Of a stretch of 51,569 bases of DNA, positions 239 through 31,248 are shown one piece after another. The notes below the pieces were generated by a model, which was not told the origin of the DNA, did no database searches, and saw only the letters and a program-made list of their open reading frames with translations. Numbering within the stretch: the first letter of the stretch is position 1; every line of letters starts with the position of its first letter. The DNA is from a bacterium (GTDB lineage: Bacteria > Electryoneota > Tariuqbacteria > Tariuqbacterales > JADHWD01), in contig JADHWD010000001.1 of assembly GCA_016783645.1 (NCBI GenBank), positions 1-51,569 of the forward strand, written 5' to 3'. The position numbers and the translations under genes were made by a program.

Positions 239-1327
239 ATGATTAAAGAAAAGCATTTTATTTCTTACCGGGTCAATTTTTACCTTCGACATTATATAAG
301 AAAAATTCTGCGGTTCCTTTTAAACATCATATATATAAAAATCCGCTTCAATAAGAGATTTCACTGCAAGTGTATCTTTGAAGGGTATGATATTATGATT
401 TTATGCGATGGCTCCGTTTTCTGCGTTTGTGGTGATTTTGGTATGGAAAAACCGCTGGGAAATATTTACCGGAATTCTATCACCGAGATTTGGAAGGGGA
501 CAGAATTTGAAAGACTGCGCGCTGCTTTTCGTAAGAATAAGCTGCCACTCGACTATTGTTCCCATTGCATTGGAGCGGCTTTGATACCTAAAAATGCCCC
601 GCTTCCCCAGACCGCCGATTTCCCGGAAGTAGTTCATCTGGAAACCACAGTGCAATGTAATCTTGAATGTTCTTTTTGTCATCGAGATGTGATTGAATCG
701 CAACGCGGTAGTAAAATCCTGCCACCAAAAATTGTTTTCCAGTTAATCGATGAAATAATCGCTCACCGATGCTCTAAATTCCTGCTCTTAGTCGGTTACG
801 GCGAACCTTTCCTGGATAAAAACAGCTACGAATACTGCAAATATTTGAAACAACATTTCCCCGAGATTATAATCGGCTCTTCCAGCAACGCTATACCCTT
901 CTCACACTATGAAAACGCACGAAAGTTGGTAGAAAGCGGAATTGATGCCTTAGTTCTTTCCATCGATGGTGTCGATGATAAGACCTATCTTCGATACCAG
1001 GTGGGAGGCGATTTGGAAAAAGCGCTGCAGGGTATGAAAAACATCATTCAGGCTCGCAGGGAAACCGGAAGCTTCGCTCCAAATATTATCTGGCAATACT
1101 TGCTCTTCAACTGGAGTGATAAACAGCCTATGATAGATAAAGCAATAGCATTAGCAAAGGAATACCAAGTGGATATACTACATTTTCTACCTACCTTTTC
1201 CCCCATCAGCGGTATATCCTGGAAATACATATTCAAACCTTACTGGGGTATGATTTACAGATTTTGCGGTCCCGAAAGAGAATATAATCCGCATAATCGT
1301 GCCCTGATTGTCGAAATGAAGCAATAA
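239..1327 (+). CDS. Radical SAM protein with an N-terminal SPASM/twitch-like Cys-rich motif
   Basis: 362-aa ORF with AGGAGAG just upstream of the ATG. CX3CX2C cluster motif 'CNLECSFC' at ~aa 140. N-terminal 'DGSVFCVCGD..PLGNIYRNSITEIW..CSHC' resembles the auxiliary-cluster SPASM signature. Confidence 0.75.
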   Translation: MIKEKHFISYRVNFYLRHYIRKILRFLLNIIYIKIRFNKRFHCKCIFEGYDIMILCDGSVFCVCGDFGMEKPLGNIYRNSITEIWKGTEFERLRAAFRKNKLPLDYCSHCIGAALIPKNAPLPQTADFPEVVHLETTVQCNLECSFCHRDVIESQRGSKILPPKIVFQLIDEIIAHRCSKFLLLVGYGEPFLDKNSYEYCKYLKQHFPEIIIGSSSNAIPFSHYENARKLVESGIDALVLSIDGVDDKTYLRYQVGGDLEKALQGMKNIIQARRETGSFAPNIIWQYLLFNWSDKQPMIDKAIALAKEYQVDILHFLPTFSPISGISWKYIFKPYWGMIYRFCGPEREYNPHNRALIVEMKQ

Positions 1328-1344
1328 GAATAAAAAGCATTCGG

Positions 1345-1376
1345 CTTGCAACTTGTAACTTGTAACTTGCAACTTT
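1345..1376. repeat. Heptamer tandem repeat CTTGYAA x4.5, 18 nt after the stop codon
   Basis: cttgcaa cttgtaa cttgtaa cttgcaa cttt read directly. Confidence 0.85.
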
Positions 1377-1385
1377 ATAGATAAA

Positions 1386-3319: not shown

Positions 3320-4720
3320 ATGAAAATACTGTTGATACGCCCTCATTCCGATGTCCCCGCAGCGCCACCGCCCATAGGTCTGATGTACCTTACAGGATAC
3401 CTCCGTACTAAAAATCAGCATGAAATAGAGATATATGACGGCCGGGTTAAGGAAACCGGCGCCGGCTTTACCGCCGATGTGATAAAATCCGCTCGTCCTG
3501 ATATAGTAGGAATCACCGCTTTTTCCATGGAAGCTGATCAGGCGCATCAAATCGCCCGCATATCCAAACATGAAGCGCCGTCCGCCGCGGTGATTATCGG
3601 CGGACCCTATCCCTCCTCCGACCCGGAAGGAACATTATCCGACCCCGCGGTGGACTTCGCGGTAAAAGGTGAAGGCGAAATCGTATTGGCTCAGTTATTG
3701 GAAACGCTGGAGAACGGATGGAAGGTTGACGATGTCGGCGGTTTGGCTTTCAGGAGAAACGGCGGATTGGTAGATACTGGTCCCTGTGAAACAGCGGCTA
3801 ACCTGGATGATATTCCGTTCCCAGCCTGGGATATGATTGATTTGGAGGAGTATTTCCGCCCCAGCGCCTCTAAAAGGCGGTTGACTAATCCCATACAAAT
3901 GAAAAGGCGGGGGATTCCGGTGGTATCCACCCGGGGATGCCCTTATGGCTGCACCTACTGCCATAACATCTTCGGACGGAAACTGCGCAAACGGTCGCCG
4001 GAAAATGTTATCGCCGAACTTAAATGGCTCAAAGAGAAGCTGGCGATTGAGGAAATCGAATACATCGATGATGTTTTCAATTTGGACATCAAACGCGCCA
4101 AGCTGATAATGGATATGATGATAGCGGAGAAGCTGAATCTCAAGTTCTCTTTCCCCAACGGACTGCGAGCCGACCAGATGGATGAGGAACTAATCGATAA
4201 GATGAAAGCCGCCGGATGCTACCGCATCAATTACGCCATAGAATCCGGTTCTGACCGGATTCAGAAGCAGATACATAAGAATCTGAATTTAGAGCGGGCG
4301 ATGGAGATAATTAATTATACGGCGGAGAAGAATATCAGCGTAGGCGGATTTTTCATGCTGGGTTTCCAGGATGAGACCGAGTCGGAGATGCGGCGCACCA
4401 TCGATTTCGCCTTGAAATCCAAATGCCACACCGCTTCTTTTTTCATCTTAACTCCATTCCCCGGCACCGAGATGTACCGGGAAGCGGCTGCTGCGGGATA
4501 TGATATGGAGGGGATATATTCCGATTACGGAGCGGTGTCCGCTAATATATCGCAGGTGTCCTCCGAACAAATATTGAAGATGCGTAAAGACGCTTTCCGG
4601 CGGTTTTATTTCGATCCTATAAGGATGTGCTCGATCTTCCGCACTACGCCGAATAAGATGGCGCTTTTACGGAATGTGATTAGGACAGCGAAATTGTCAT
4701 TTCTGGGGAAGGAATATTAA
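3320..4720 (+). CDS. Class B radical SAM protein, subfamily A, paralogue 2
   Basis: 466 aa; 'MKILLIRPHSDVPAAPPPIG', 'CPYGCTYC', 'AIESGSD'; GAGG upstream of the ATG. Confidence 0.9.
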   Translation: MKILLIRPHSDVPAAPPPIGLMYLTGYLRTKNQHEIEIYDGRVKETGAGFTADVIKSARPDIVGITAFSMEADQAHQIARISKHEAPSAAVIIGGPYPSSDPEGTLSDPAVDFAVKGEGEIVLAQLLETLENGWKVDDVGGLAFRRNGGLVDTGPCETAANLDDIPFPAWDMIDLEEYFRPSASKRRLTNPIQMKRRGIPVVSTRGCPYGCTYCHNIFGRKLRKRSPENVIAELKWLKEKLAIEEIEYIDDVFNLDIKRAKLIMDMMIAEKLNLKFSFPNGLRADQMDEELIDKMKAAGCYRINYAIESGSDRIQKQIHKNLNLERAMEIINYTAEKNISVGGFFMLGFQDETESEMRRTIDFALKSKCHTASFFILTPFPGTEMYREAAAAGYDMEGIYSDYGAVSANISQVSSEQILKMRKDAFRRFYFDPIRMCSIFRTTPNKMALLRNVIRTAKLSFLGKEY

Positions 4721-4721: not shown

Positions 4722-5297
4722 ATGGTAAGAAATCGCGAAGATTTTGCCAAGAAGATTCTAGAAATTGACAACGAAAAAATTGTTGATATTATATATGAGA
4801 ACTCAAATAATCTTGTTAATATAGAATTAGAGAGACATCGCCGAATAGTTGATAAAGGAAGAGATTATCTTGGAATGACTTTGATCATTTTAGGAATAAT
4901 AGTTGGAATCGGAAATATTGTATTTAGTAAATATTCTATAGGATCTTTGTCTAATCTGAGTCTGATTCCAATTTTGGTTTTTTTATTTTACATTGCTTCA
5001 ATTACTTTATTCGTAGTGTCATTGTTTGCGTATTATAAAATTTCCTTTATACATGAGTATTTATGGACAGATTTTGAAGATACGGTTTTTATTCCAGATG
5101 TTGAAGAAAATGTTACATATTATTATAAATGCTCCCAACTTGTCAATACCTGGTATAGGATTGAATTGTTCAGACAATTGAATGAAAAATTGGTGTTTCG
5201 ACTTAATAAGGCAAGCCTATTATCTTTGGGAGGTATTGTTTCCATAATTATTTCATTGATCTTAGTTCTTTGTGGTTTAATATTTTCAGGAGTATAA
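4722..5297 (+). CDS. Hypothetical membrane protein (about 3 TM helices), low-GC
   Basis: 191 aa. The ATG lies 1 nt after the upstream stop. Hydrophobic stretches are 'LGMTLIILGIIVGIGNIVF', 'LIPILVFLFYIASITLFVVSLFAYY' and 'LLSLGGIVSIIISLILVLCGLIF'. No family recognised. Confidence 0.6.
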   Translation: MVRNREDFAKKILEIDNEKIVDIIYENSNNLVNIELERHRRIVDKGRDYLGMTLIILGIIVGIGNIVFSKYSIGSLSNLSLIPILVFLFYIASITLFVVSLFAYYKISFIHEYLWTDFEDTVFIPDVEENVTYYYKCSQLVNTWYRIELFRQLNEKLVFRLNKASLLSLGGIVSIIISLILVLCGLIFSGV

Positions 5298-5299: not shown

Positions 5300-5482
5300 A
5301 TGAATTCATTAAGAAATAGCAATAAAAAAAAATCTACTTTGCACAATGGGGAAAAGAATCAGGATAATACAAATAAGCCTTCCCCCAATGATATAATTTC
5401 TCCAACAGCCGGTCAGTGGATAACAGAAGGCATAAATCCCAATAAAGTTACAAAGAAGGGATCACAGAAAAGTAACAAATAA
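5300..5482 (+). CDS. Small hydrophilic Lys/Asn-rich protein (60 aa), function unknown
   Basis: AGGAG (5288-5292) lies 7 nt upstream of ATG 5300. The stop overlaps the next start (TAATG at 5480-5484). No Cys and no TM segment. The ORF-track start at 5270 overlaps the preceding gene and was not used. Confidence 0.45.
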   Translation: MNSLRNSNKKKSTLHNGEKNQDNTNKPSPNDIISPTAGQWITEGINPNKVTKKGSQKSNK

Positions 5483-6882
5483 TGAAAATCCTCTTCATAC
5501 GGCCTAACAGCGAAGTGCCCTCCTCCGCCCCGCCTATGGGTCTGCTCTATCTCGGAGCTTACCTGCGGGAATACGGCAGACATGAGATTGAAATCTACGA
5601 CGCCCGTAATCTGGGCTCTAACCTGAAACAGATCGGCCAGGCGGTTAAAAAATCTAATCCCGATATCATCGGAATCACCGCCTTCTCCATGGAACAGAAG
5701 GAAGCGCACCAGCTCGCCAAATTATCCAAGGAGATCTATCCCGATAGACCGGTGGTCATCGGAGGCCCCTATGCCACTTCACAGCCCGAAGATGCTATGC
5801 GGGATAACAATATCGACTATGCTGTCATCGGTGAGGGCGAACGCTCCGGCTTGAGGCTGTTCAATATGCTGGAAAACGGAGGAAATCCCGCAGAAGTCAA
5901 TGAAATCGCTTTCCGCAATGATGATAAAGTTGTCCGCACCAATTCCGTGGATTACATCATCGACCTCGATGAGATTCCCTTTCCCGCCTGGGATCTGATA
6001 GATTTCGAAAGTTATTTCGGCAGTGAAGGCGGTAAGCGTAAGACCTTCAACCAGCATCAGATGAAAGAACGGGTTTGGCAGTTGATAACTACCCGCGGCT
6101 GTCCCTATAGATGCCTTTATTGCCATAATCTATTCGGTAAGATGATTCGCAAGCGTTCAGTGGAAAATGTCATAGAAGAACTGAAAATTTTAAAAAATAA
6201 GTATAATGTCGAAGAGATAGAGATCATCGATGATATTTTCAATCTTGACCTCGTCCGCGCTAAGGAGATTCTCCGCAGTATAATCGCCGAAAAACTCGAT
6301 CTCAAGTTCTGCTTCCCCAACGGGCTCAGATCTGACCGTTTCGATGAAGAACTACTCGACTTAATGAAAGAAGCGGGTGCCTACCGATTAGTTTTCGCCA
6401 TTGAATCGGGTTCTCCCCGCATACAAAAACTAATCAGGAAAAATGTCAAACTCGATATCGCCCAGAAAAATATCGAACTCGCCGCTCGCCGCGGTTTTTC
6501 TATCGGCGGATTTTTTATGATCGGATTTCCCACCGAAACCGAAGAGGAAGTGATGAATACCATCAAATTCGCCCTCGCTTCTAAGATGGTGACCGCCACT
6601 TTCTTCATGGTTACTCCGTTCCCCGGCACCGAACTGCATAAGCTGGCGCTCGATTTAGGCTTCGAACTGCCCGCTGAATATGAACACTATCAAAAAGTAT
6701 CCCTAAATGTATCAAAAGTCCCAACAGTAAAATTGGAGCGGCTCCGCCAATTAGCTTTGCGTAAATTTTATCTCGATCCGCGGCGGATAATTCAATATAT
6801 GAAGACCACTCCCTGGCGGCACCGTTTCTTCCAAAAATTATATATCCTAATAATGGCGACTCTGTTCAAATATGAGAAATAG
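5482..6882 (+). CDS. Class B radical SAM protein, subfamily A, paralogue 3
   Basis: 466 aa; 'MKILFIRPNSEVPSSAPPMG', 'CPYRCLYC', 'AIESGSP'. Confidence 0.9.
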   Translation: MKILFIRPNSEVPSSAPPMGLLYLGAYLREYGRHEIEIYDARNLGSNLKQIGQAVKKSNPDIIGITAFSMEQKEAHQLAKLSKEIYPDRPVVIGGPYATSQPEDAMRDNNIDYAVIGEGERSGLRLFNMLENGGNPAEVNEIAFRNDDKVVRTNSVDYIIDLDEIPFPAWDLIDFESYFGSEGGKRKTFNQHQMKERVWQLITTRGCPYRCLYCHNLFGKMIRKRSVENVIEELKILKNKYNVEEIEIIDDIFNLDLVRAKEILRSIIAEKLDLKFCFPNGLRSDRFDEELLDLMKEAGAYRLVFAIESGSPRIQKLIRKNVKLDIAQKNIELAARRGFSIGGFFMIGFPTETEEEVMNTIKFALASKMVTATFFMVTPFPGTELHKLALDLGFELPAEYEHYQKVSLNVSKVPTVKLERLRQLALRKFYLDPRRIIQYMKTTPWRHRFFQKLYILIMATLFKYEK

Positions 6883-6914: not shown

Positions 6915-8333
6915 ATGAAGGTGTTATTCCTACGGCCGCATTCGACAGTTCCCGCCTGCACACCGCCGCTTGGAGTGCTGTCCTTGACCAGTTATATTCG
7001 AAAATATGGCGGACACGAAGCCACTATTTTTGATGGCAGAGTGTTAATGATTCCACATGAGCGAATCAAACCCTATATAGAGCATTACAATCCTGACATA
7101 GTCGGTATCACTGCGATGTCAGCGGAGAGGAATCAAGCGCACGAACTCGCAGAATTATCAAAAGAGCTGTTCCCTAAAGTTCCGGTTGTTATCGGAGGAC
7201 CTTATACTACCGCCGAATGGAATAGAGTCTTGGCGGACAAAAACATCGATTACGCAGTGATCGGTGAGGGAGAATCCACACTGTTAAATCTGCTTAAGTT
7301 TCTTGAAGAAGGTAATAATTATCCCGAAATCAAGGGGCTGGCTTTCAGGAAAGACGGGATCCCGCTCTTCTTTGGTTTTCAGGAGTCAATCGCGGATTTG
7401 GATTCCATTCCCATGGTGGCGTGGGACGCCATAGATTTGGAGCTCTATATCCACAATAAGAAGAAGCGGTGCGGGATGAATCAGCATTGCAGTTCGGAGC
7501 GGGTAGCGCCGGTGTTAACCACCAGGGGATGTCCATATCAGTGCTCTTACTGCCATAATATGTTCGGCAAGAAACTGCGCCAGCGTTCGGCGGAACATGT
7601 GATGAATGAACTGATCTATTTGAAGCGCAATTATGATATCAAAGAGATTGATATCATAGATGATATCTTCAACTTTGATAAAGCGCGGGCGATGAAGATT
7701 TGCGGCCTTATAATCGAAGAGAAGCTGAATATCAGATTCACCTTCCCCAACGGACTGCGTACGGATTTGATGGATGAAGAGCTGGTCGATAAACTGATAG
7801 AGGCTGGCGCCCGCCGCTTTGTGTATCCTATAGAATCAGGTTCTCCCGAAGTCCAAAAGCGGGTCAAAAAAAATTTAAACCTGGAAAAAGCGAAAAAAAT
7901 CATCGATTATACCGCCAGTAAGAATGTTTCTGTAGGCTCTTACTTTATATTGGGTTTTATCGATGAGACGGAAGAAGAGATGCGGATGACCATCAATTTC
8001 GCCTTCAAATCGAAGATAGTCACCGCTTCTTTCTTCGTCCTGCAGCCTTTTCCCAACACTAAAATCTATGAGCAAGCGGTTGAAGCGGGTTACATCAAGC
8101 AGGAAAAAGAGCTGCAACAATATTACAGCGCCATTCAAAACATCTCCAAGGTATCAAAAGAGAGGATTGACAAACTGCGGAGATACGCCATGTGCAGATT
8201 CTATTTTAATCCTTGGAGGATGTATCGATTTTTCAGAACGACTCCCGTCAGACACGCGTTTTGGACAAAGGTCAAACTAATCATGTTGTATTTATTCACT
8301 ACCAATCCGGAGGAGAAGGGCGCGTTGTTTTAG
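6915..8333 (+). CDS. Class B radical SAM protein, subfamily A, paralogue 4
   Basis: 472 aa; 'MKVLFLRPHSTVPACTPPLG', 'CPYQCSYC', 'PIESGSP'. Confidence 0.9.
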   Translation: MKVLFLRPHSTVPACTPPLGVLSLTSYIRKYGGHEATIFDGRVLMIPHERIKPYIEHYNPDIVGITAMSAERNQAHELAELSKELFPKVPVVIGGPYTTAEWNRVLADKNIDYAVIGEGESTLLNLLKFLEEGNNYPEIKGLAFRKDGIPLFFGFQESIADLDSIPMVAWDAIDLELYIHNKKKRCGMNQHCSSERVAPVLTTRGCPYQCSYCHNMFGKKLRQRSAEHVMNELIYLKRNYDIKEIDIIDDIFNFDKARAMKICGLIIEEKLNIRFTFPNGLRTDLMDEELVDKLIEAGARRFVYPIESGSPEVQKRVKKNLNLEKAKKIIDYTASKNVSVGSYFILGFIDETEEEMRMTINFAFKSKIVTASFFVLQPFPNTKIYEQAVEAGYIKQEKELQQYYSAIQNISKVSKERIDKLRRYAMCRFYFNPWRMYRFFRTTPVRHAFWTKVKLIMLYLFTTNPEEKGALF

Positions 8334-8368
8334 TCGTTAGTTAAGTAGTTAAGCGGTAAAACAGTAGA

Positions 8369-8434
8369 GTAGGGGCGAAGCATTTTTACTTAACAATATA
8401 AATTTTAATCACTTAAAAAATGCTTCGCCCTTAC
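8369..8434 (+). repeat. Long hairpin element (about 18-bp stem, AT-rich ~28-nt loop), copy 1
   Basis: gtaggggcgaagcattttt ... aaaaatgcttcgcccttac. One G-T position pairs only as a G-U wobble on the + strand. Second copy at 43513-43580. Confidence 0.8.
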
Positions 8435-8794: not shown

Positions 8795-10213
8795 TTGAGA
8801 GTATTGTTTTTAAGGCCGCATTCGTCGATACCATCATCGGCGCCGCCGACAGGATTGTTGTCTTTAACTAGTTACTTGAGGAAATATGGGGACTATGAGA
8901 TAACGATTTTCGACGGCAGGGCTTATATGACTCCGACTGAGCAGGTTAAACCTCTGATAAAACAACATAAACCTGATGTAGTCGGAATCACCGCTTTTTC
9001 TCCGGAACAGCGGGAAGCGCATGAACTGGCGGAACTATCTAAAGAATTATTTCCGGGGATACCGGTGATTATGGGCGGTCCTTACACCACCAGTCAATGG
9101 GCTAAGGTGTTAGCGGATGAAAATGTGGATTATGCAGTGGTCGGCGAAGGCGAATTGACTTTGCTAAAATTGCTGAAAAGCATGGAGGAGGGTGAAAGAT
9201 ATCCCGAAATCAAGGGATTAGCTTTCAAGAAGAACGGTGAACAGATATTCTTCGGTTTCCCGGATTTCATCGAAAATATAGACACTATTCCGATGGTAGC
9301 TTGGGACGCGATAGATCTGGAATATTATTTCCGCAACAAGAAGAAGCGTTCGGGAATGAATCCCCATCCAAAATCCAACCGCACGGTGCCGATTTTCACC
9401 TCCAGGGGATGCCCTTACTTGTGCACTTACTGCCATAATGTATTCGGTAAAAGAATGCGCAAGCGTTCGGTGGAGCATGTGATGGAGGAACTCATCTATC
9501 TCAAGCGAAATCATGACATCAAGGAAATCGACATCATCGATGACATCTTCAATTTAGATAAAGAGCGAGCTAAGATTATATGTGACCGGATAATCGAAGA
9601 GAATCTGAACATTGGCATCGCTTTTCCCAATGGGCTGCGCACCGACTTGATGGATGAAGAGCTGATTGACAAGCTGGTGGAAGCGGGTGCTTTCCGCTTC
9701 ATTTACGCTATCGAATCCGGTTCCCCTAAAATTCAGAGGAGCGCCAGGAAGAATCTCAACTTGGAAAAAGCTAAAAGAATCATCGATTATACTGCCAGGA
9801 AGAATGTATCCGTCGGCGGATTCTTTATGTTTGGGTTCTTGGATGAAACGGAAGAAGACATGAGGATGACCATCGATTTCGCGGTTAAATCGAAGATGGT
9901 GACCGCCTCATTTTTCATCCTGCAGCCGTTCCCTAACACGGAAATATATAACCAAGCGATTGAGAAAGGCTACCCCCTGCCGGTAAAGGCGCAGCAGCAG
10001 TATTACGGCGTGACTTACAACATATCTAAAGTTCCCAAGGACAGAATCGACAAGTTGAGAAACTATGCCGTCAGAAAATTCTATTTCAATCCTATGCGCG
10101 TATATCGATACCTGCGAACAACACCTATCAAATATGCCTTCTGGTTGAAAATGAAAATGATTCTCATGTATCTATTCAAGACTAATCCGGAGGAAGAGGG
10201 AGCACGTTTATAG
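8795..10213 (+). CDS. Class B radical SAM protein, subfamily A, paralogue 5
   Basis: 472 aa. TTG start with AGGAGG upstream. 'MRVLFLRPHSSIPSSAPPTG', 'CPYLCTYC', 'AIESGSP'. About two-thirds identical to paralogue 4 (67/102 N-terminal residues by hand). Confidence 0.9.
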   Translation: MRVLFLRPHSSIPSSAPPTGLLSLTSYLRKYGDYEITIFDGRAYMTPTEQVKPLIKQHKPDVVGITAFSPEQREAHELAELSKELFPGIPVIMGGPYTTSQWAKVLADENVDYAVVGEGELTLLKLLKSMEEGERYPEIKGLAFKKNGEQIFFGFPDFIENIDTIPMVAWDAIDLEYYFRNKKKRSGMNPHPKSNRTVPIFTSRGCPYLCTYCHNVFGKRMRKRSVEHVMEELIYLKRNHDIKEIDIIDDIFNLDKERAKIICDRIIEENLNIGIAFPNGLRTDLMDEELIDKLVEAGAFRFIYAIESGSPKIQRSARKNLNLEKAKRIIDYTARKNVSVGGFFMFGFLDETEEDMRMTIDFAVKSKMVTASFFILQPFPNTEIYNQAIEKGYPLPVKAQQQYYGVTYNISKVPKDRIDKLRNYAVRKFYFNPMRVYRYLRTTPIKYAFWLKMKMILMYLFKTNPEEEGARL

Positions 10214-10247: not shown

Positions 10248-10318
10248 TGGCAGGGAATTGACGGGGGGCTGTTTGTATGGGTAAATATAATAATCCCCCA
10301 TTAAAAAAGGGAGAAATC

Positions 10319-21262: not shown

Positions 21263-21282
21263 TAAAATACAGGATAACTATA

Positions 21283-21725: not shown

Positions 21726-21735
21726 TTTTGAGGCT

Positions 21736-21991: not shown

Positions 21992-21993
21992 TA

Positions 21994-22203
21994 ATGCACA
22001 GATATTTAGTTATCATAGAGAAAGCGGATAATAATTATGCCGCTTATGTGCCCGACCTGCCCGGCTGCGCCGCTGCCGGCAAGACTGTTGAAGAAACCGA
22101 AAAATTCATCCGCAAAGCTGTCCAACTGCATATCAAGGGAATGAAGGAAGATAATTTGCCAATTCCCGAAGCTTCAACTGTAGCGGAATATATTGTTGTT
22201 TAA
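21994..22203 (+). CDS. hicB: HicB-family antitoxin
   Basis: 69 aa; 'YLVIIEKADNNYAAYVPDLPGCAAAGKTVEETEKFIRKAVQLHIKG'. Confidence 0.8.
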   Translation: MHRYLVIIEKADNNYAAYVPDLPGCAAAGKTVEETEKFIRKAVQLHIKGMKEDNLPIPEASTVAEYIVV

Positions 22204-22224
22204 AACTTATCAAGGAGACGCAAA

Positions 22225-22413
22225 ATGCAAGGCGTTAAATATTTAATCGATGAAAACGGAAAAAAAACCGCCGTTCAAATCGACCTGAAAGTTTGGGGCG
22301 AAATTTGGGAAGATTTTTACGATGTTATGATAGCCCTTTCCAGAAAAGATGAACCGGACCTTCCCTGGGAAGAAGTGAAAAAAGAAATTGAAGCGGATAG
22401 TGGAAAAGTATAG
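22225..22413 (+). CDS. Small antitoxin partner of the downstream RelE/ParE toxin
   Basis: 62 aa; overlaps the toxin gene; paralogue at 21089. Confidence 0.6.
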   Translation: MQGVKYLIDENGKKTAVQIDLKVWGEIWEDFYDVMIALSRKDEPDLPWEEVKKEIEADSGKV

Positions 22414-22675
22414 ACTATTCATAAAGCCTTCGGCAAGGAAGGAATTATTAGGTCTGCAGAAAGATGTTAAAACAAGAGCCCAGCTTATCATTGATACTCT
22501 GTCAGAACAGCCTCGTCCACGAGGATATAAGAAATTATTTGGATATACTAACCTTTATAGAATCAGAATAGGTAGTTATCGGATAATTTACGAGATTGAG
22601 GACTCCGTGAAGACAGTAAGAATTTTGGCTGTTAAACATAGGAAAGATGTATATAAATCCATCTATTTTCAGTAA
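22388..22675 (+). CDS. RelE/ParE-family toxin
   Basis: 'YRLFIKPSARKEL...PRPRGYKKL.G..NLYRIRIGSYRIIYEIEDSVKTVRILAVKHRKDVY'. The start is uncertain (ATG 22388 or GTG 22400). Confidence 0.8.
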   Translation: MKRIVEKYRLFIKPSARKELLGLQKDVKTRAQLIIDTLSEQPRPRGYKKLFGYTNLYRIRIGSYRIIYEIEDSVKTVRILAVKHRKDVYKSIYFQ

Positions 22676-22692: not shown

Positions 22693-23670
22693 TTGTCCCT
22701 TTTCCTCCATCCCCAATCGAAAAAACTGTCGATAACCATCGTCAACACCAGCGAGAAGCATTTCACCATCCCCTGCATTCAGTCAGTGTATGACGAGACT
22801 AAAGATACCGATTTTGAGATAATCGTCACCGACAACAATTCCAAAGACGGTTCGGTCGAAGCTATCCGGGAAAAATTCCCGGAGGTGATTATCATCGAAA
22901 ACAAGAAGAACGCGGGTTTCACCGAAGCCAATAATCAGTCGATAGTTATCGCCCGGGGCGAATATATCTTCTGCCTCAATCCTGACTGCAAAGTGTTGAA
23001 CGGCGCTGTCGACAAGATGGTGAAATACCTGGACGAACATCCAAAAGCGGGGATACTGGGTTCCAAACTGCTGAACGGTGATATGACACTTCAGCCTTCC
23101 GCCCGCAATTTCCTGTTCACTAGAAATCTGCTGGCTCAACATATGATACCTTGGAAGATACTACCCCATAGGTGGGCGGGAAGATTAGTGCTGGAATACT
23201 GGGATCATGATGAGCCCCGGGTGGTGGATTGGATCATCGGGGCATCATTGATGATCCGGCGGAAATGCTTAGAAGATATCGGTCTGAAGGACCAGCGCTA
23301 TTTCATCTTCCACGAAGACAATGACTGGTGCTGGCAGGCTCACACCAAAGGCTGGCAGACCCATTTTTTACCTCAAGCGGAAATCATCCACTACGGTTCT
23401 CAGACGGTTAAAAGCATCTGGGGGAACAAACTGACGCTGGAAGTGTACAAGGCTCAGCATACTTTCATCCGCAAGAACCGGGGCGAAACAGCATTATTAA
23501 GACACCGGATTTTAATATCCTGCCTGATTTTAATCAGGATGTTATTCACTAATATCCTGCGGCTTCTGGGCAAAGTGGATAAGGAGAAATACAGGATATC
23601 GATGGATTTTCACAACGAAGCGTTGAAGATACAGATGAATCCGCCGGGAGAGGCGGCGAGGTTAGAATAA
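22693..23670 (+). CDS. Glycosyltransferase family 2
   Basis: 325 aa, TTG start; 'LSITIVNTSEK...FEIIVTDNNSKDGSVEAI...NAGFTEANN' GT2 N-terminal fold and 'HEDNDWC'. Confidence 0.8.
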   Translation: MSLFLHPQSKKLSITIVNTSEKHFTIPCIQSVYDETKDTDFEIIVTDNNSKDGSVEAIREKFPEVIIIENKKNAGFTEANNQSIVIARGEYIFCLNPDCKVLNGAVDKMVKYLDEHPKAGILGSKLLNGDMTLQPSARNFLFTRNLLAQHMIPWKILPHRWAGRLVLEYWDHDEPRVVDWIIGASLMIRRKCLEDIGLKDQRYFIFHEDNDWCWQAHTKGWQTHFLPQAEIIHYGSQTVKSIWGNKLTLEVYKAQHTFIRKNRGETALLRHRILISCLILIRMLFTNILRLLGKVDKEKYRISMDFHNEALKIQMNPPGEAARLE

Positions 23671-23696: not shown

Positions 23697-23897
23697 ATGG
23701 ATTTATTAATAGAAGAGAAAGAATTTGTCAGAATTTCCCGTAGTCTATGGGAATGGGCTCGGAATCGGCCGGAATACCATGATTTAATTGAAGATTTGGA
23801 AGATTTGGAACATATCGCACAGGCTCGCGCTGATAAAGAAGATTCAATATCACTGGAAGATTATCATAGTCAGCGAATTGGAAAAGAAAAAATATAA
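23697..23897 (+). CDS. Small acidic antitoxin partner of the downstream RelE/ParE toxin
   Basis: 66 aa; overlaps the toxin ORF; no family recognised. Confidence 0.55.
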   Translation: MDLLIEEKEFVRISRSLWEWARNRPEYHDLIEDLEDLEHIAQARADKEDSISLEDYHSQRIGKEKI

Positions 23898-24147
23898 TGT
23901 CATTATTAATCCTGCAGCCAGGCGCGATTTGGATAAACTGCGATTCGAGGACTATAAAAGAATTTACACCGCGATGAAAAATCTTGAAGATATCCCTCGT
24001 CCGCCCGGATGCATAAAATTGGCTGGAGGAGTGAACGAGTTTCGCATCATAATCGGAAAGTTCAGGGTATTGTATGATGTATCGGACAAGAGCGAATCTG
24101 TAACAATTTATCGAATTTTGCCTCGTGATAAAGCATATAAAAGATAA
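23878..24147 (+). CDS. RelE/ParE-family toxin
   Basis: 'YNVIINPAARRDLDKL...IPRPPGCIKLAGGVNEFRIIIGKFRVLYDVSDKSESVTIYRILPRDKAY'. Start placed at in-frame TTG 23878. The ORF-track start 23788 lies deep in the antitoxin gene. Confidence 0.75.
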   Translation: MEKKKYNVIINPAARRDLDKLRFEDYKRIYTAMKNLEDIPRPPGCIKLAGGVNEFRIIIGKFRVLYDVSDKSESVTIYRILPRDKAYKR

Positions 24148-25219
24148 AGTACTCATTTTTAGAAATCAAGGCATCGGCGACCTTATCTTGATTACACCGG
24201 CGATCAGAGCAATCCGGCATCTGCACCCGGAAGCGCATATATCCGTCTTCACCGGTGATTGGTCGAAAAGTTCAGTGGAAGGTAATCCTCACATATATGA
24301 GATTATCTCCTATCCCGACCCTTGGATTCAGAATAAAAAGCTTTTCAGGATATTGCAGTTGACAGCGAAACTTCGGCGGAAAAGATTCGACCGGGTCTAT
24401 ATCTTCCATTCTCATGATATTTTACAATTGCTCACGCTGTTATCCGGGATACCGGAAAGGTACGGATTTTCATTCGAAGGGACAGGCCGCTTCATTCAGC
24501 ATAAAACTCAATGGGAGCCCAATTCACAGCGTTATATCGCCGATAACTACCTGGATATTCCCCGTCTGGCGGGATATAACGGCGATGATCTTTCTTTGGA
24601 ATACTATTTGTCCCAGGAAAATGAAGCGGAAGCGGAAGGGATAATCAGCGGTAACGATATTGATAAGGATAATTTCGTAGTCATAGCTCCCGGCGGCGGC
24701 ATCAATCCCCGCCAGGATGTGTTTGAAAAACGCTGGGGAGCGGATAAATTCGCCCGCCTGGCGGAATTATTGCATGAAGAGTTCGATTGTTCCATCATAC
24801 TTATAGGAGCTAAAGCGGAGAAGGAGATATGCGGTATAGTAAAAAATAAATCTGCCGTTAAAGTTGTAAATCTGTGCGGCGAAACTAACTTTAAAGTCTC
24901 AGCGGCTTTAGTTAAAAAATCGAAAATGCTGATTAGTAACGATTCCGGAATAATGCACACCGCGGTCGCATTTAAGAAGCCCAGCGCGGCAGTCTTTGGG
25001 CCTTCCAATCCCTATTCCCTGCTGCCGCAGAACAATATCAACCGCTGGGTGTCATCAGGTATTGACTGCAGCCCCTGCTATTGTAACAGTATCTTTAAAG
25101 GCTGTGATAGAAATCTCGCCTGTATGAAAGAATTATCCGCGGAAAAAGTATTTGAAACTGTTAAGGAATTATGGATTGAACAATATTCCCAAATACAGCG
25201 TAGTCATACCGTCTTATAA
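24125..25219 (+). CDS. Glycosyltransferase family 9 (heptosyltransferase-like)
   Basis: 364 aa, GTG start overlapping the RelE 3' end; 'VLIFRNQGIGDLILITPAIRAIRHLHPEAHISVFT' and 'ISNDSGIMHTAVAFKKPSAAVFGP'. Confidence 0.8.
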   Translation: MIKHIKDKVLIFRNQGIGDLILITPAIRAIRHLHPEAHISVFTGDWSKSSVEGNPHIYEIISYPDPWIQNKKLFRILQLTAKLRRKRFDRVYIFHSHDILQLLTLLSGIPERYGFSFEGTGRFIQHKTQWEPNSQRYIADNYLDIPRLAGYNGDDLSLEYYLSQENEAEAEGIISGNDIDKDNFVVIAPGGGINPRQDVFEKRWGADKFARLAELLHEEFDCSIILIGAKAEKEICGIVKNKSAVKVVNLCGETNFKVSAALVKKSKMLISNDSGIMHTAVAFKKPSAAVFGPSNPYSLLPQNNINRWVSSGIDCSPCYCNSIFKGCDRNLACMKELSAEKVFETVKELWIEQYSQIQRSHTVL

Positions 25220-26147
25220 CAACGCCAAAATCCTTCCTGAAATCCTTGACGCTTTGTTGAAGCAGGAGGGTTCGGAGGAAGCTGAAGTGATTGTGGTAGA
25301 TGACGGATCAAAGGACAATACCGAAGAAATCGTCAAAGATTATCCGGTCAGATATTTCAAGAAGCCTAACGGCGGGCCCGCCTCGGCGAGGAATGTGGGT
25401 ATAAAGGAATCGAAGGGGGATATTGTCCTATTCATCGACAGCGATTGTGTCCCTCAGCCGGGATGGCTTAAAGCGATGACTCAGCCTTTTGAAAACGATA
25501 AAATCGACGGTGTGAAAGGAATCTATATCACCCGGCAGAAGAGCATAACCGCGCGTTTCATTCAACTGGAATTTGAAGAAAGATACCAGAAACTGTCTAA
25601 GTTGGAATATATCGATTTCATCGATTCCTATAGCGCCGCTTTCCGAAAGGAGAAATTGATAGAAGTTGGCGGCTTCGATGAGAGCTTCCCCAAAGCGGAC
25701 AATGAGGATGTGGATTTATCCTATAAACTGGCGGGCATCGGCTGTAAAATGGTGTTTCAGCCTTCGGCTGTGGTGCAGCACACACATCCTGATGATTTAA
25801 TTATGTATATTAAGGTGAAATATTCCCGCGCCTTCTGGCGTTCAGCGGTTTATATAAAACATCCGCGCAAGGCGTTGAAAGATTCCTATACCCCGCAAAG
25901 TCTGAAATTACAGATGCTTTCGACAGCGGGGATTTGGATAGGAATATTCTTCGCGGCCGTATTCAACTGGAACTGGTGGTTATTCGCATGTTTGTCCCTT
26001 TATATCTTTTCTCTATTACCTTTTATTATAAGGGTTTACGGGAAAGATGACCGGGCTGAAAGTCTGGCGCCGTTCATGCTTTTCATCAGGTCCAACTGCT
26101 TCCTGCTGGGAACTCTATTAGGTTCGATATATCATCGGCTAAAATAA
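25152..26147 (+). CDS. Glycosyltransferase family 2 with C-terminal TM helices
   Basis: 'YSVVIPSYNNAKILPEILDALLKQ..VIVVDDGSKDNT..GGPASARNVGI..VLFIDSDC', then hydrophobic 'GIWIGIFFAAVFNWNWWLFACLSLYIFSLLPFII'. TTG start (25152 or 25176) overlaps the GT9 gene. Confidence 0.8.
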   Translation: MKLLRNYGLNNIPKYSVVIPSYNNAKILPEILDALLKQEGSEEAEVIVVDDGSKDNTEEIVKDYPVRYFKKPNGGPASARNVGIKESKGDIVLFIDSDCVPQPGWLKAMTQPFENDKIDGVKGIYITRQKSITARFIQLEFEERYQKLSKLEYIDFIDSYSAAFRKEKLIEVGGFDESFPKADNEDVDLSYKLAGIGCKMVFQPSAVVQHTHPDDLIMYIKVKYSRAFWRSAVYIKHPRKALKDSYTPQSLKLQMLSTAGIWIGIFFAAVFNWNWWLFACLSLYIFSLLPFIIRVYGKDDRAESLAPFMLFIRSNCFLLGTLLGSIYHRLK

Positions 26148-27708: not shown

Positions 27709-28368
27709 ATGGTAAAATATCTAGGCTGTACTGTTCTAATCACCGCTTCAATCATGATCCTGTCATTAACCGCGGCGGATTGCATAGCGCAAGAATATGT
27801 GATTAAGCCCAATGACCAGATAAAATCATCGGTGTTTGACAATCCTGATATCAGTGTGAACGCGGCGGTACCGCCGGACGGGATCATATCCTTTCCCCTG
27901 GTAGGCGAATTGATGGTGCTGGGTAAAACCGCCCGTCAACTGGAAGTCATGTTAGCCGATAAACTCTCTTATTATATTAAAAATCCAAAAGTTTCAGTTC
28001 AGATTTCCGCTTATAATCCTTTGAAGATATATTTAATAGGGGCTTTCCGCAATCCCGGTTCTTATAATTACAAACCGGAAAACCGTTTCGTCGATTATCT
28101 TAGTGAAGCCGGCGGATTTGACCCGCTGAAAGCTGATATAAAGAAATGCCGTATCTATTCAGCAGGCAGCATACTCCGAATGGATATTGACCTGAAAGAA
28201 CTCTTCAAGGCGGATAGTCTGAATATCGGATATGAACTGAAGCCCTTCGATACCATTTATCTGCCTGAAAAATCCGGTTTCTCCTTCGCCGAGTGGCGGG
28301 ATGTAGCCGATGCGATTAACATCATTCTCGGTGTTTTCACGCTGTACCTGATAATACAAAGAAATTAA
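27709..28368 (+). CDS. Polysaccharide export protein (Wza-like Poly_export domain), short form
   Basis: 219 aa; signal-like N-terminus; 'YVIKPNDQIKSSVFDNPDISVNAAVPPDGIISFPLVGELMVLGKTARQLEVMLADKL..NPKVSVQI'. Confidence 0.75.
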   Translation: MVKYLGCTVLITASIMILSLTAADCIAQEYVIKPNDQIKSSVFDNPDISVNAAVPPDGIISFPLVGELMVLGKTARQLEVMLADKLSYYIKNPKVSVQISAYNPLKIYLIGAFRNPGSYNYKPENRFVDYLSEAGGFDPLKADIKKCRIYSAGSILRMDIDLKELFKADSLNIGYELKPFDTIYLPEKSGFSFAEWRDVADAINIILGVFTLYLIIQRN

Positions 28369-28572
28369 TTTACGGAGGTGGGGGGATTTGTTATAATTCC
28401 ACCGATAAAACGCCATTTTCTGTTATCATGATGAATTTTTAACTTGACCTTGTTATTATTCTTTAGTATATTGCTTTCAAGGAAATTCTTTACGCCGCTT
28501 CAGCGGCGCTGTCAGGCATAGAGAATAGGATCTATAGGTTTTAAGCTTTAAACTGCAAACTTTGGACTCAAG

Positions 28573-28806
28573 ATAAACCCTCATGCCTCTGTTGCGGCAC
28601 AACTTAGAATGAAAATAGTCTCAAGGGCGACCGCAAGGGTCGCCCCTACAACATAATTGGATATTTACTTGTAGGGACAGAACATTGTTCTGTCCCTACT
28701 GGATTCCCGCCTTCGCGGGAATGACATATACACTCGTTCCCACGCTCCAGCGTGGGAATGCATATTCTTCATTCAACAATCGATATTCCTTGTTCGATAT
28801 TCGCAT
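28573..28806. repeat. Hairpin mosaic array 4 (about 6 elements, shared with array 6)
   Basis: Contains ataaaccctcatgcc..ggcacaacttagaatgaaaatag (28573-28618). gggcgaccgcaagggtcgcccctac (28625-28649) is the exact reverse complement of 15172-15196. Also gtagggacagaacattgttctgtccctac (28671-28699) and ggattcccgccttcgcgggaatgacat (28701-28727). tcgttcccacgctccagcgtgggaatgcata (28734-28764) is identical to 43245-43275. Confidence 0.9.
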
Positions 28807-29097
28807 TTTCTTGACCCTTTACCCTTTTTTAGTCGATTAAGAAAAATTTTTTTATAAATGAGACTTGAATCACAATTTCATTTCCAAATGCTTTTTATAT
28901 TGTAAAATCCAATTGTCTGAATTTATCACAGCTTCACGGAAGGAGGTAGGAAACTGCCGCAATTTGATATTTGATTTTTAACATTTCTTACTAATTGAAC
29001 TTCAAAATCAATACCGCATCCCGTTTCTCTGGCGGCGGTTTGAAACATTTGGAATTATCTTTCCATAATTGAAGCATCTTCAGACAAAGGAAACGAT

Positions 29098-31248
29098 ATG
29101 GAAATCAGAAAACTCTGGGAAATAATCCTTCGGCGTAAATGGATAATAATTCAAGCATTTATCGTCATTTTCGCCATCGTATTGACCGGAACGCTGCTTC
29201 AAACTCCGACATATTACGCCGAATGTAATGTTCTGATCGAACAACAGGGCACTCAGGAAGCTTTGCTTCGTTCCATCGGCTTGGAAGGCGTCTCTGAAAT
29301 GCTCTTCTCTATGAATCTGGGGCAGAAATCCAGCATCGTAGCGGTTGAAATCATGAAACTCATGACTAAACCGATCCTGGATAAAGTAGTTGAAAGGATG
29401 GACTTGAGAAATGAGAAAGGTGAACTTATTCCCGGACCTTCCCTGAAAATCACCAATCCTACTTTTTTCTGGTATCCCCTGTACGGTTTATCCGCCAAAC
29501 CACATCGTCTAGGCAATATGATCATCATTCAGGGTTACTCCCCTGATCCTCAGCAAGCGGTTGATTTCTGCAATACCATCACGCAGATCTATATGTTAAA
29601 CGACATTGAGAAGAAGCATAAAGAAACCGCAGAAGCCGCCAGATTCGCTGAAGAACAAAGCATTAAAGCGAAAGCGGACTGGAATGAAGCCAAGAGAAAG
29701 CTGAAGGAATATCAGGAAGCCGAGGGATTGGTGGATTTTTCTTACGAAAGCATTTTGTTGATTAATACAATATCCGATCTGCGCGCCGACCAGGCGATGC
29801 TGGAATTATCTCTGCATGAAGCCGAAATGTTCGGCGGAGAAATTATCGATCCCTATATGATCGGTGGTTCATCACTTTCCAATGCGGGACAAATCGGCCA
29901 GTTGAAAACATCTTTATCTCAACAGGAATCGCAATTAGAAAGCGAATTGACGAAATACACCGGTAACCACCCTTCAGTAATCGCCCTCAAACAGCAAATT
30001 CAAGATTTAAACCAAAAGCTCATCACCGAAAAAGAGATATTCGAAGAGACAGGCTCTGAAAGATATAAAGTTCTGCAGGAACAGATAAACGAATACCGTA
30101 AAAAACTGGAAGAATTTCCCGAAAAACTCTATATCATGGCTCAATTAACTCTGCAGTCAGAGACTTATCAGAAAATGTACGAAACTCTGCTGGATATGAA
30201 ATACCGGCTTAACATCTCCAAAGCCATGCAGATTTCCAAACTATCCTTGCTGGAACCCTCTTGGAAAGCGAAGGTTTACGCTCCGGATATTGAACTTAAT
30301 ATGATCATCGGAGTTGTTTTGGGATTATTGGTCGGTTTCGGTTTGGCTTTCCTCATCGAATATCTCGATGATACAATCAAAGACGGCGAAACACTACAGG
30401 CTCAATTCAATCTGCCCTTGCTCGGCACTATTCCTCTGATCGGAAAAAAAGACGAGAAAATCATCGACGCCATGCTGGATTCCGGTGGAAGGCACAGGTC
30501 ACAGCATTTCCTCAACGAATCGTTCAATATTTTCAGTTATAATATCAAGCTCAGCAGTATAGATTCTCCTACCCGGCATGTGATGATCACATCTTCATCA
30601 CCGGGCGAAGGTAAAACATCCATCTCCTGCAATCTCGCTATCAATATGGCGCGCAAGGGTAAAAAAGTGGTGCTCATCGATTCCGATTTCCCCCGCCCCA
30701 ATATATATAAAATATTCAACTTATCCAACGATAAGGGTTTAACCGATTTGCTCATGGGTGAAACTACCATTGAAGAAGTAACCCAATCCTGCGGCGTGGA
30801 AAACATGCATGTTATCACCACCGGTCCCAAACCCCCTTCTACCTCCATCCTGTTTGAATCCCAGCAAATGAAGGACTTCATCAAAGAATTGGAACAAAGA
30901 TACGATTTTATAATATTTGACACTCCTCCCATCCTGTCAATCAATGATCCTGTCATACTCGGTTCATATGTAGATAAAACTATTTTAGTGGTAGCGGCGA
31001 ATGAAGTATCCCGTTCAGTAGTGAAGATGGCGATATCCACCATGAAGAAGAGCCACATCAATCTGGTGGGCGCTGTGCTGAATAAATTCCGCGCCGAAGG
31101 CAGCCATTACTATTATTATTACTATTATCATACATCCGATGAAGGCAACGGCTTCAAGAAAATCTGGCGCGACGGATTATCCATCATCGGAATCAATAAA
31201 AGACGCCGGCACCGCCGCCGCACTCCTAAAATACCAACGAATGTCTAA
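29098..31248 (+). CDS. Wzc-like polysaccharide co-polymerase / BY-kinase (tyrosine autokinase)
   Basis: 716 aa. N-terminal TM plus Wzz-like coiled region, and a second TM 'MIIGVVLGLLVGFGLAFLI'. Walker A 'SSSPGEGKTS', then 'FIIFDTPP'. C-terminal Tyr cluster 'HYYYYYYYH'. Confidence 0.85.
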   Translation: MEIRKLWEIILRRKWIIIQAFIVIFAIVLTGTLLQTPTYYAECNVLIEQQGTQEALLRSIGLEGVSEMLFSMNLGQKSSIVAVEIMKLMTKPILDKVVERMDLRNEKGELIPGPSLKITNPTFFWYPLYGLSAKPHRLGNMIIIQGYSPDPQQAVDFCNTITQIYMLNDIEKKHKETAEAARFAEEQSIKAKADWNEAKRKLKEYQEAEGLVDFSYESILLINTISDLRADQAMLELSLHEAEMFGGEIIDPYMIGGSSLSNAGQIGQLKTSLSQQESQLESELTKYTGNHPSVIALKQQIQDLNQKLITEKEIFEETGSERYKVLQEQINEYRKKLEEFPEKLYIMAQLTLQSETYQKMYETLLDMKYRLNISKAMQISKLSLLEPSWKAKVYAPDIELNMIIGVVLGLLVGFGLAFLIEYLDDTIKDGETLQAQFNLPLLGTIPLIGKKDEKIIDAMLDSGGRHRSQHFLNESFNIFSYNIKLSSIDSPTRHVMITSSSPGEGKTSISCNLAINMARKGKKVVLIDSDFPRPNIYKIFNLSNDKGLTDLLMGETTIEEVTQSCGVENMHVITTGPKPPSTSILFESQQMKDFIKELEQRYDFIIFDTPPILSINDPVILGSYVDKTILVVAANEVSRSVVKMAISTMKKSHINLVGAVLNKFRAEGSHYYYYYYYHTSDEGNGFKKIWRDGLSIIGINKRRRHRRRTPKIPTNV

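Follow-up and report, generated by a model that had tools for sequence, protein, structure and literature searches.

The radical SAM array and its partner genes

Contig JADHWD010000001.1 of GenBank assembly GCA_016783645.1 (GTDB lineage Electryoneota; Tariuqbacteria; Tariuqbacterales; JADHWD01) carries an array of nine radical S-adenosylmethionine (SAM) enzymes with class B domain architecture, set among glycosyltransferase (GT) and export genes. The stretch analysed, referred to here as the window, is one complete metagenomic contig of 51,569 bp; since the window is the whole contig, the array cluster is truncated at its 5′ end. The + strand holds nearly all long open reading frames (ORFs), from position 239 to 48,793, and near-identical shorter contigs exist in ENA and Logan assemblies. 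A first-pass annotation, made from the DNA sequence alone, had reported eleven ORFs with Fe–S or radical SAM signatures, and this was correct throughout: nine encode proteins with B12-binding and Radical_SAM domains, one encodes a SPASM-type radical SAM protein and one a DUF1848 protein, the profiles PF02310, PF04055, SPASM and DUF1848 all matching in the expected ORFs.

The nine paralogues are encoded on the + strand and fall into three subfamilies. Subfamily A comprises A1 (1386–2804, 472 aa), A2 (3320–4720, 466 aa), A3 (5482–6882, 466 aa), A4 (6915–8333, 472 aa) and A5 (8795–10213, 472 aa), with a within-group identity of 41–68%. Subfamily B consists of B1 (10867–12303, 478 aa) and B2 (19416–20828, 470 aa), which are 39% identical, and subfamily C of C1 (13588–15006, 472 aa) and C2 (26236–27699, 487 aa), which are 32% identical; identity across subfamilies is 21–28%. 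The partition into five, two and two members, first read from the N-termini, holds in the identities of a MAFFT alignment. All nine proteins exceed the Pfam gathering thresholds for Radical_SAM (PF04055; 75–94 bits, gathering 29.5) and B12-binding (PF02310; 34–74 bits, gathering 32.1); the latter domain scores 64–74 bits in types A and B and 34–41 bits in type C. The cluster motif CP(Y/F)xC(S/T/L)(Y/F)C and an ESGS, ESGD or ETGN motif are aligned in every one of them, and the description of nine 466–487 aa paralogues with a B12-binding-like domain and a cluster motif stands. The CxxxCxxC cysteines are 100% conserved in relatives and are the only conserved cysteines of the A type. The B type has further conserved cysteines (B2 numbering, 85 relatives: C105 in 87%, C261 in 84% and C281 in 98%), which hint at an auxiliary metal site. 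Hydropathy analysis predicts no transmembrane segment in any of the nine.

The glycan genes of the string are two GT9 and two GT2 glycosyltransferase genes, with a Wza-like and a Wzc-like gene, as first described and as borne out by Pfam matches; all six lie on the + strand. GT9a (15429–16604) belongs to the heptosyltransferase family (PF01075, 122 bits) and GT2a (22693–23670) to PF00535. GT9b (24125–25219) is heptosyltransferase-II-like: its score with TIGR02195 (WaaF type, cut-off 134.6) is 135.8 bits, just above the cut-off, while that of GT9a is 110.2 bits, below it. GT2b (25152–26147) matches PF00535 with 129 bits. Each C-type enzyme adjoins a GT9. The short Wza-like outer-membrane export protein (27709–28368; PF02563 Poly_export, 73 bits) has only 219 aa, and a 36% homologue is encoded downstream of the LCP-89 array. 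The Wzc-like co-polymerase or P-loop tyrosine-kinase-type protein (29098–31248; AAA_31, 62 bits) has Wzz and GNVR matches below gathering (E about 1e-4), and its homologue was not found in the related array loci examined. The biosynthetic content of the string was thus described correctly, but a non-biosynthetic ATPase, a DNA methylase pair, an ORF with three transmembrane segments and HicAB, RelB and ParE genes had been missed. Core genes of ribosomally synthesised and post-translationally modified peptides (RiPPs), polyketide synthases, non-ribosomal peptide synthetases, hopanoids or phosphonates were not found in the locus.

Conservation of the array in related lineages

Among the candidates scored, 2,694 homologues of A2 were found at E ≤ 1e-20. 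Those with names belong to the Fibrobacterota–Chlorobiota–Bacteroidota (FCB) group, Zixibacteria, LCP-89 and unclassified metagenome-assembled genomes (MAGs), and several paralogues often share a contig. The gene order A1, A2, A3 and so on, B1, C1, GT9a, B2, (epimerase), GT2a is conserved in at least six lineages. The loci with this order are those of GCA_026394195.1 (L007), LCP-89 B3_LCP (L009/L012), GCA_964421875.1 (L015/L010), a JGI Zixibacteria contig (L018), an ENA contig (L019) and GCA_054018255.1 (L020), as well as L031 and L032.

Positional orthologues are 57–61% identical in LCP-89 and L007 and up to 79% identical in L010. A1 has orthologues of 60–61% identity standing first in the arrays of L007 and L009, B1 has orthologues of 57–59% (L009_12989, L007_15883) and C1 has orthologues of 57–58% directly upstream of GT9. 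The closest relative is GCA_964421875.1, whose B2 is 79% identical; the same value is found for the locus of Ca. Tariuqbacter arcticus (phylum Ca. Electryoneota; L011), and LCP-89 has a B2 of 59% identity. GT9a has 48–66% orthologues between C1 and B2 in every array locus, and GT2a has 57–81% orthologues downstream of B2 in L009/L012, L010 and L011. Both are conserved members of the array cluster.

The layout shared by the relatives is a composite of loci, some elements being missing in some of them. On the 5′ side it comprises two PMT_2 genes, a radical SAM gene of about 510 aa, PMT_2, a 242-aa GT2, YdjC, PMT_2 and a 206-aa class I methyltransferase; it continues with three to seven A-type radical SAM genes, B1, C1, GT9, B2, an NAD-dependent epimerase and a GT2 of about 330 aa. 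The 242-aa GT2 is polyprenyl-phosphate-sugar-synthase-like, the PMT_2 proteins (three to four genes) are ArnT-like, and YdjC scores 228 bits with the HpnK model against a cut-off of 232.6. In LCP-89, the array is followed by a GT2–Bac_transf fusion, a Wza-like protein and two phosphodiesterases. The earlier placement of the array within a glycoconjugate-assembly locus is supported by the order kept with GT9 and GT2 genes across at least six lineages and by the neighbourhoods in related MAGs, where arrays adjoin the glycan genes PMT_2, YdjC, epimerase, phosphoglycosyl transferase and Wza-like.

A neighbour-joining tree of 60 radical SAM sequences resolved the orthogroups A1, A2, A3, A4, B1, B2, C1 and C2, as well as two groups without a member in the window, namely a further A group and a D group of 510 aa. 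In every orthogroup, the window gene pairs with that of L015/L010. Since positional orthologues are 57–79% identical and the orthogroups mix window and relatives, the paralogue duplications predate the split of the lineages. The only recent duplicates in the window array are A4 and A5 (68% identical); A5 is a lineage-specific copy of A4, and the closest relative (L015) has a single A4/A5 orthologue. The other copies have been individually retained, a pattern that favours separate, non-redundant functions.

A metagenome scan with a five-sequence B2 alignment yielded at least 553 relatives, and 80 loci were kept and annotated with hidden Markov models built from the reference loci; a scan of genome contigs with a two-sequence alignment, whose patterns were too narrow, gave only five loci. 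Among the 80 metagenome loci, at least five radical SAM genes within ±10 kb occur only in the close relatives L028, L031 and L032. A unit of radical SAM–GT9–radical SAM, often with PMT_2 and a methyltransferase, recurs at about 40% identity to the B type (loci including L036, L052, L061, L070, L072, L074 and L075). In two such loci, Pfam matches indicate PMT_2, an epimerase, a MurJ/Wzx-like flippase and a further radical SAM protein. Of the metagenome loci of at least 8 kb, GT9 is present in 15/43 and any glycan-family gene in 27/43.

The GT9b–GT2b–C2 module

The earlier notion of a single locus and pathway holds for the conserved array but not for one clean pathway, since the locus is mosaic: GT9b, GT2b and C2 form a separate module, which in the Tariuqbacter-like lineage is placed immediately after the array. 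Orthologues of C2 with 64–79% identity in relatives sit outside the array. In GCA_026394195.1 (L021) and LCP-89 (L022), the C2 orthologue follows a GT9b orthologue (51–57%) beside rho and mur genes; in the former genome this site is about 300 kb from the array on the same contig, and in the latter it is on another contig. The order B2–GT2a–GT9b–GT2b is repeated in L029.

C2 homologues of about 50% identity are found across several phyla, those named being from Nitrospirota, Nitrospinota, Omnitrophota, Planctomycetota and Marinimicrobia. In Nitrospinota (L023) and Nitrospirota (L106), the order is Lip_A_acyltrans, (Phosphodiest), GT9, DUF362–ferredoxin, C2-like radical SAM, GT2, and a Wzy_C (O-antigen-ligase family) gene is near the C2-like gene in both. 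A 53% homologue of GT2b adjoins the C2 homologue in L023, and a GT2 is in the same position in L106. This context of lipid A acyltransferase and Wzy_C, together with the heptosyltransferase II score of GT9b, indicates that GT9b–GT2b–C2 is a cross-phylum unit of lipopolysaccharide (LPS)-core type. A DUF362 gene with ferredoxin-type domains (faint Pfam matches) lies directly upstream of the C2-like gene (L023, 8757–9998; L106, 8716–9966), and a DUF362 gene is also present near the array of the closest relative (L010, 15606–16508); the DUF362 protein is a candidate dedicated reductant for the radical SAM enzymes.

Relationship to characterised enzymes

None of the nine radical SAM proteins reaches any NCBIfam equivalog or subfamily cut-off, which rules out assigning reactions by curated models. 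C1 and C2 are HpnJ-like: HpnJ (TIGR03471, cut-off 577.6) is their best curated model and matches over the full length, with 379.7 bits for C2 and 294.8 bits for C1, the other proteins scoring at most 157 bits. The B type scores 115–140 bits with HpnJ (against 578). For the A type, the best curated models are the Sden_1168 P-methylase and BchE, with 166–190 bits against 575 and 481, respectively; across the array, the best scores outside HpnJ (Sden_1168 or BchE) are 165–219 bits against cut-offs of 481–575. Matches to the Sden_1168/PhpK, BchE, ladderane-lipid radical SAM, ApyD, rSAM_ocin_1, MgmA and AprD4 models are all far below cut-off, the AprD4 scores being at most 127 against 500. The hopanoid genes shc, hpnH, hpnG, hpnI and hpnK were found neither in the window nor adjoining the C2 homologues.

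AprD4 is a sugar 1,2-diol dehydratase that works without cobalamin. It is the top PDB sequence match for the A, B and C types (6fd2; identity about 20%), followed by MgmA (9ccb) and then TsrM, CysS, OxsB and TokK. The AlphaFold model of A2 has a pLDDT of 89.5; in a Foldseek search it matched TsrM, AprD4, OxsB, MgmA, CysS and TokK at TMq 0.65–0.74, and its best reciprocal structural match is AprD4 (TM 0.73/0.75). Sequence and fold searches of the PDB thus return generic class B relatives plus AprD4, which leaves cobalamin use and chemistry undiscriminated. According to a 2026 review, proteins like AprD4 fall inside ‘B12-rSAM’ networks (PMC12931638). As the A2 model fits cobalamin-free AprD4 as well as it fits TsrM, OxsB and TokK, the assignment to class B refers to architecture, and the label ‘cobalamin-type’ given in the first-pass annotation is retained for the architecture but not for the use of cobalamin. 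No cobalamin uptake gene is present in the window, and neither a cobalamin riboswitch nor other RNA families or tRNAs were found in it.

These resemblances bear on an unlikely alternative, in which the radical SAM enzymes tailor the lipid part of the product (acyl, polyprenyl or triterpenoid chains, by methylation, cyclisation or cross-linking) and the glycosyltransferases merely add a head group. Most characterised class B and related radical SAM enzymes of lipid pathways act on hydrocarbon parts, among them HpnP/HpnR, the glycerol dialkyl glycerol tetraether (GDGT) ring and tetraether synthases and the ladderane candidates (PMC13459092). All nine proteins have partial matches to the ladderane-lipid and HpnR models, and Lip_A_acyltrans is encoded near the C2 homologues. 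However, neither the window nor any of the syntenic loci examined contains fatty-acid, polyketide, prenyltransferase, squalene–hopene cyclase, hpnH or hpnG genes, and none of the nine has a predicted transmembrane segment. Moreover, sugar rings are the targets of both HpnJ, to which the C type is closest among characterised enzymes, and AprD4, which gives the best structural match.

Possible function of the cluster

On balance, and with modest confidence, the window can be read as one copy of a conserved, undescribed cluster for a radical-tailored glycoconjugate of the cell envelope, the likeliest product being an LPS-core-like oligosaccharide or glycolipid that is lipid-linked. The domain architecture, the paralogue structure, the conserved gene order and the glycan/LPS gene context are the observations behind this reading. 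In the corresponding mechanism, where the substrate class, the use of one enzyme per step, the use of cobalamin and every chemical step are presumed, GT9 and GT2 enzymes would add sugars to a lipid-linked intermediate at the cytoplasmic face. The anciently diverged orthogroups, at least seven in number (A1–A4, B1, B2 and C1), would each be responsible for a different step of oxygen-independent radical tailoring, with this intermediate or its sugar donors as substrate; the steps known for relatives are C-methylation, deoxygenation or dehydration and carbocycle-forming ring contraction. The product would then be flipped, perhaps decorated by ArnT-like GT-C enzymes of the kind seen in relatives, and exported or displayed with the aid of the Wza- and Wzc-like proteins. 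The second, more widespread LPS-core-type module, GT9b–GT2b–C2, has come to adjoin the array in this lineage. Precedents for radical SAM action on sugar carbons are AprD4, GenK, GenD1 and MoeK5. A precedent for the tailoring of lipid-linked sugars is provided by HpnI/HpnK/HpnJ and calditol synthase, which convert lipid-linked hexoses into carbocycles (PMC13459092). The ‘poly-C-methylated’ product offered as an example in the first-pass annotation gained no specific support, both C-type enzymes being closest to the ring-contracting HpnJ.

Several points weigh against the proposal of a radical-tailored envelope glycoconjugate. Lipid A/Kdo (3-deoxy-D-manno-octulosonic acid), heptose-nucleotide and Wzx/Wzy genes and an initiating transferase are all absent from the window, and the genes that form the 5′ end of the cluster in relatives (PMT_2/YdjC) lie off this contig. 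The cluster is interrupted by toxin–antitoxin, restriction-modification and ATPase genes and by intergenic palindromes, and it probably comprises several transcription units. LPS is not the only conceivable acceptor, because proteins, too, can be glycosylated by GT9 enzymes. Since none of the nine reaches a curated equivalog cut-off, homology gives no basis for assigning a reaction type; cobalamin binding is likewise presumed, and AprD4-like enzymes function without it.

A bolder version of the proposal, which is possible but doubtful, is that the A1–A4/B1/C1/B2 array with GT9a constitutes a complete pathway for hyper-modified sugars and that GT9b–GT2b–C2 is a cross-phylum, oxygen-independent system of LPS-core modification. 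The sugars would then be carbocyclic, branched-chain, higher-carbon or multiply C-methylated, and would be part of a glycolipid that resembles the LPS core and is made by anaerobic phyla of the FCB group. Each of the at least seven orthogroups would catalyse a type of radical reaction undescribed for carbohydrates, and the C2 module would span Nitrospirota, Nitrospinota, Electryoneota and LCP-89.

No prior description of the array was found in the searchable literature, including papers on Tariuqbacter/Electryoneota, recent reviews of radical SAM enzymes and keyword searches, which agrees with the earlier suggestion of an undescribed pathway. Clusters with two or three class B enzymes are known; we know of no other conserved array in which seven to ten of them stand in fixed order next to envelope glycosyltransferases. 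The reactions catalysed by class B radical SAM enzymes are chemically demanding. Their family is very large, with few members characterised biochemically or structurally (PMC12931638). The fixed-order array beside envelope glycosyltransferases offers a genetic context and candidate substrates for several uncharacterised orthogroups together. It suggests that outer-membrane or surface glycolipids are radical-tailored without oxygen in uncultivated anaerobic phyla, namely Electryoneota, LCP-89 and Zixibacteria, with Nitrospirota and Nitrospinota added in the case of the C2 module. If this is true, the cluster would represent new sugar chemistry and a new type of LPS-core modification, and its products, whether lipids or glycans, might serve as new biomarkers of anoxic sediments and lakes.

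Comparison with known systems

One parallel is the HpnI/HpnK/HpnJ pathway for the head groups of bacteriohopanepolyols (GT2, YdjC deacetylase and class-B-type radical SAM), in which the radical SAM enzyme is proposed to ring-contract lipid-linked glucosamine to a cyclitol ether. The common features are the HpnJ-like C1 and C2, the GT2 adjoining C2, the HpnK-like YdjC of relatives and the context of lipid-linked sugars. However, the scores of C1 and C2 are well below 578, shc, hpnH and hpnG are lacking, and the partner glycosyltransferases are GT9 enzymes of LPS-core type; in addition, HpnJ pathways use a single radical SAM enzyme for the step, as against seven to ten in the array. The radical SAM enzymes of aminoglycoside and moenomycin pathways (the C-methylases GenK, GenD1, Fms7 and MoeK5 and the diol dehydratase AprD4) share the class B architecture and have sugar carbons as their targets, but each of these pathways has one to three of them, encoded in secondary-metabolite clusters of actinomycetes alongside aminocyclitol genes; aminocyclitol genes are absent here.

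Relatives carry a GT2/YdjC/PMT_2 triad by the array, which resembles the lipid A aminosugar systems ArnC/ArnD/ArnT, FlmF2/NaxD/FlmK of Francisella and LgmABC of Bordetella. Unlike the array loci, those systems are devoid of radical SAM enzymes and have one GT-C, compared with three to four GT-C paralogues in the array relatives; the triad itself is off this contig, which starts just upstream of A1. Several class B paralogues per cluster are also found in the pathways of polytheonamide (PoyB/C/D), bottromycin (BotRMT1-3), pactamycin (PctJ/N/O) and thienamycin (ThnK/L/P), where each paralogue performs a distinct tailoring step. Those clusters have two to three radical SAM enzymes and peptide or small-molecule substrates, whereas the array has seven to ten, no precursor peptide or scaffold synthase, and envelope glycosyltransferases and exporters as partners.

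Inserted and flanking genes

The SPASM-type radical SAM protein (239–1327, +) has an N-terminal SPASM/twitch-like cysteine domain (residues 45–110, 39 bits) preceding the radical SAM core (residues 135–274, 63 bits), and its family comprises 11 homologues at E ≤ 1e-10 in 5.8 billion proteins. It had been counted with the array in the first-pass annotation, and this membership was rejected: the gene is absent from the related array loci examined, and a 61% homologue lies in an array-free housekeeping context. A lineage-specific membrane protein of 191 aa with three hydrophobic segments (4722–5297, +) starts 2 nt past the A2 stop; it has no Pfam, NCBIfam or PADLOC match and is absent from related loci but present in the near-identical contigs.

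A STAND-like ATPase of AAA_16/ATPase_2 type by Pfam (12371–13588, +) lies between B1 and C1; a 38% homologue is found at a different array position in L015, and the gene is absent from the LCP-89 and Zixibacteria arrays. The DUF1848 protein (16583–17413, +; PF08902, 274 bits) ends with CQGGCGYC (CxxxCxxC) and matches the PADLOC model RTasDUF1848 with 192 bits. The order GT9a–DUF1848–B2 is seen in the Tariuqbacter-like contigs L015 and L027–L029; the inclusion of DUF1848 in the locus is therefore valid for this lineage only, the gene being absent from LCP-89 and Zixibacteria arrays and matching a defence-associated model. Between DUF1848 and B2 there is a putative type II restriction-modification pair (17703–19407, +), comprising a Cys-rich 242-aa ORF (17703–18431) and an N6/N4 DNA methylase (18358–19407; PF01555, 124 bits; PADLOC MTase_II, 159 bits). 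In the Ca. T. arcticus locus L011, the corresponding position holds a methylase that shares 71% identity with it. The Cys-rich ORF has no family match and no counterpart in the related loci examined, and would be the nuclease of the pair. DUF1848, the ATPase and the methylase were rejected as core members, as they are absent from the LCP-89 and Zixibacteria arrays.

Toxin–antitoxin-type genes are numerous. An orphan HicB-like antitoxin (10490–10690, +; PF15919, 36 bits) occupies the A5–B1 gap, a block assigned by family matches (21089–22675, +) contains a RelB-like ORF, HicB/HicA, HicA/HicB and RelB-like/ParE, and a ParE toxin with a small upstream ORF follows at 23697–24147 (+; PF05016, 32 bits for 23788–24147). 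In all there are five such units, co-directional with the biosynthetic genes. The two RelB-like ORFs have a 55-nt repeat in common (21202–21256 and 22338–22392).

The small ORFs of all gaps were listed in the search for RiPP precursors, and those with a family match are HicA/HicB or RelB/ParE. RiPP precursors in the large gaps were thus rejected; HicAB, RelB/ParE, palindromes resembling repetitive extragenic palindromic (REP) elements and 8-nt tandem repeats are there instead. This bears on the idea that the array modifies a peptide or protein, in RiPP-like fashion or as a surface-protein modification possibly coupled to protein glycosylation by PMT_2/GT9, an explanation with little probability. 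The PMT_2 and GT9 families do include protein glycosyltransferases, MgmA is among the best sequence and structure matches, type IX secretion system (T9SS) cargo proteins and a 2843-aa surface protein are encoded downstream, and there are partial matches to the ApyD, rSAM_ocin_1 and methyl-coenzyme M reductase (MCR) glutamine methylase models. Yet these three matches are all far below cut-off, the small ORFs in the gaps are toxin–antitoxin genes and not precursors, neither a leader peptidase nor a RiPP recognition element or a peptide exporter was detected, and in relatives the synteny of the array does not extend to the surface proteins encoded downstream.

The inserted genes might also suggest a mosaic of unrelated or defence genes, with the radical SAM paralogues being redundant copies or part of an anti-phage island. 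In the PADLOC scan, from which the nine class B proteins were left out, the SPASM protein gave weak viperin-model (pVip) matches; toxin–antitoxin, restriction-modification and ATPase genes are interspersed along with DUF1848, which matches a DRT-associated PADLOC model, and GT9b–GT2b–C2 is a separable module. Nevertheless, the order of the radical SAM genes and their GT9a/GT2a partners are kept in lineages without any such insertions, and the paralogues, A4/A5 excepted, are ancient orthogroups and not recent redundant copies; this reading is very improbable. All three alternatives (lipid tailoring, peptide or protein modification and a defence or mosaic island) lose weight because the corresponding core genes are missing and because synteny is kept in lineages free of mobile insertions.

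Octamer tandem repeats with the units GGTGAAGT (26 copies) and GTTAAGTG (about 4 copies) and a GTTAAGA repeat (3.7 copies) at the contig start were detected, the sites being 17417–17626, 8324–8373, 10205–10262 and 1–26. Repeats start right at the stop codons of DUF1848, A4 and A5 or no more than a few bases from them. Such a repeat is also found where the contig and its shorter siblings begin or break off, which makes the repeats a possible cause of breaks in the assembly. REP-like palindromes (10350–10424, 15092–15121, 15166–15198, 20903–20959 and 28623–28655; 84–97% complementary pairs) are shared between the gaps after A5, C1, B2 and Wza, some overlapping terminator-like hairpins. They may be small mobile repeats or may indicate where transcription units end. 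Scans of the window for sigma-70 promoters and terminators were not above the expectation from shuffled sequences, and the organism probably uses other promoter types.

Downstream of the export genes, the window encodes a 2843-aa protein with about 18 CarboxypepD_reg (prealbumin-like) repeats (33050–41581). It is flanked by a probable outer-membrane beta-barrel of 495 aa lacking a family match (31492–32979) and by a FadL/UPF0164-like outer-membrane protein (41938–42876). Proteins with T9SS tails are encoded at 43742–47038 and, on the − strand, at 49797–51335.

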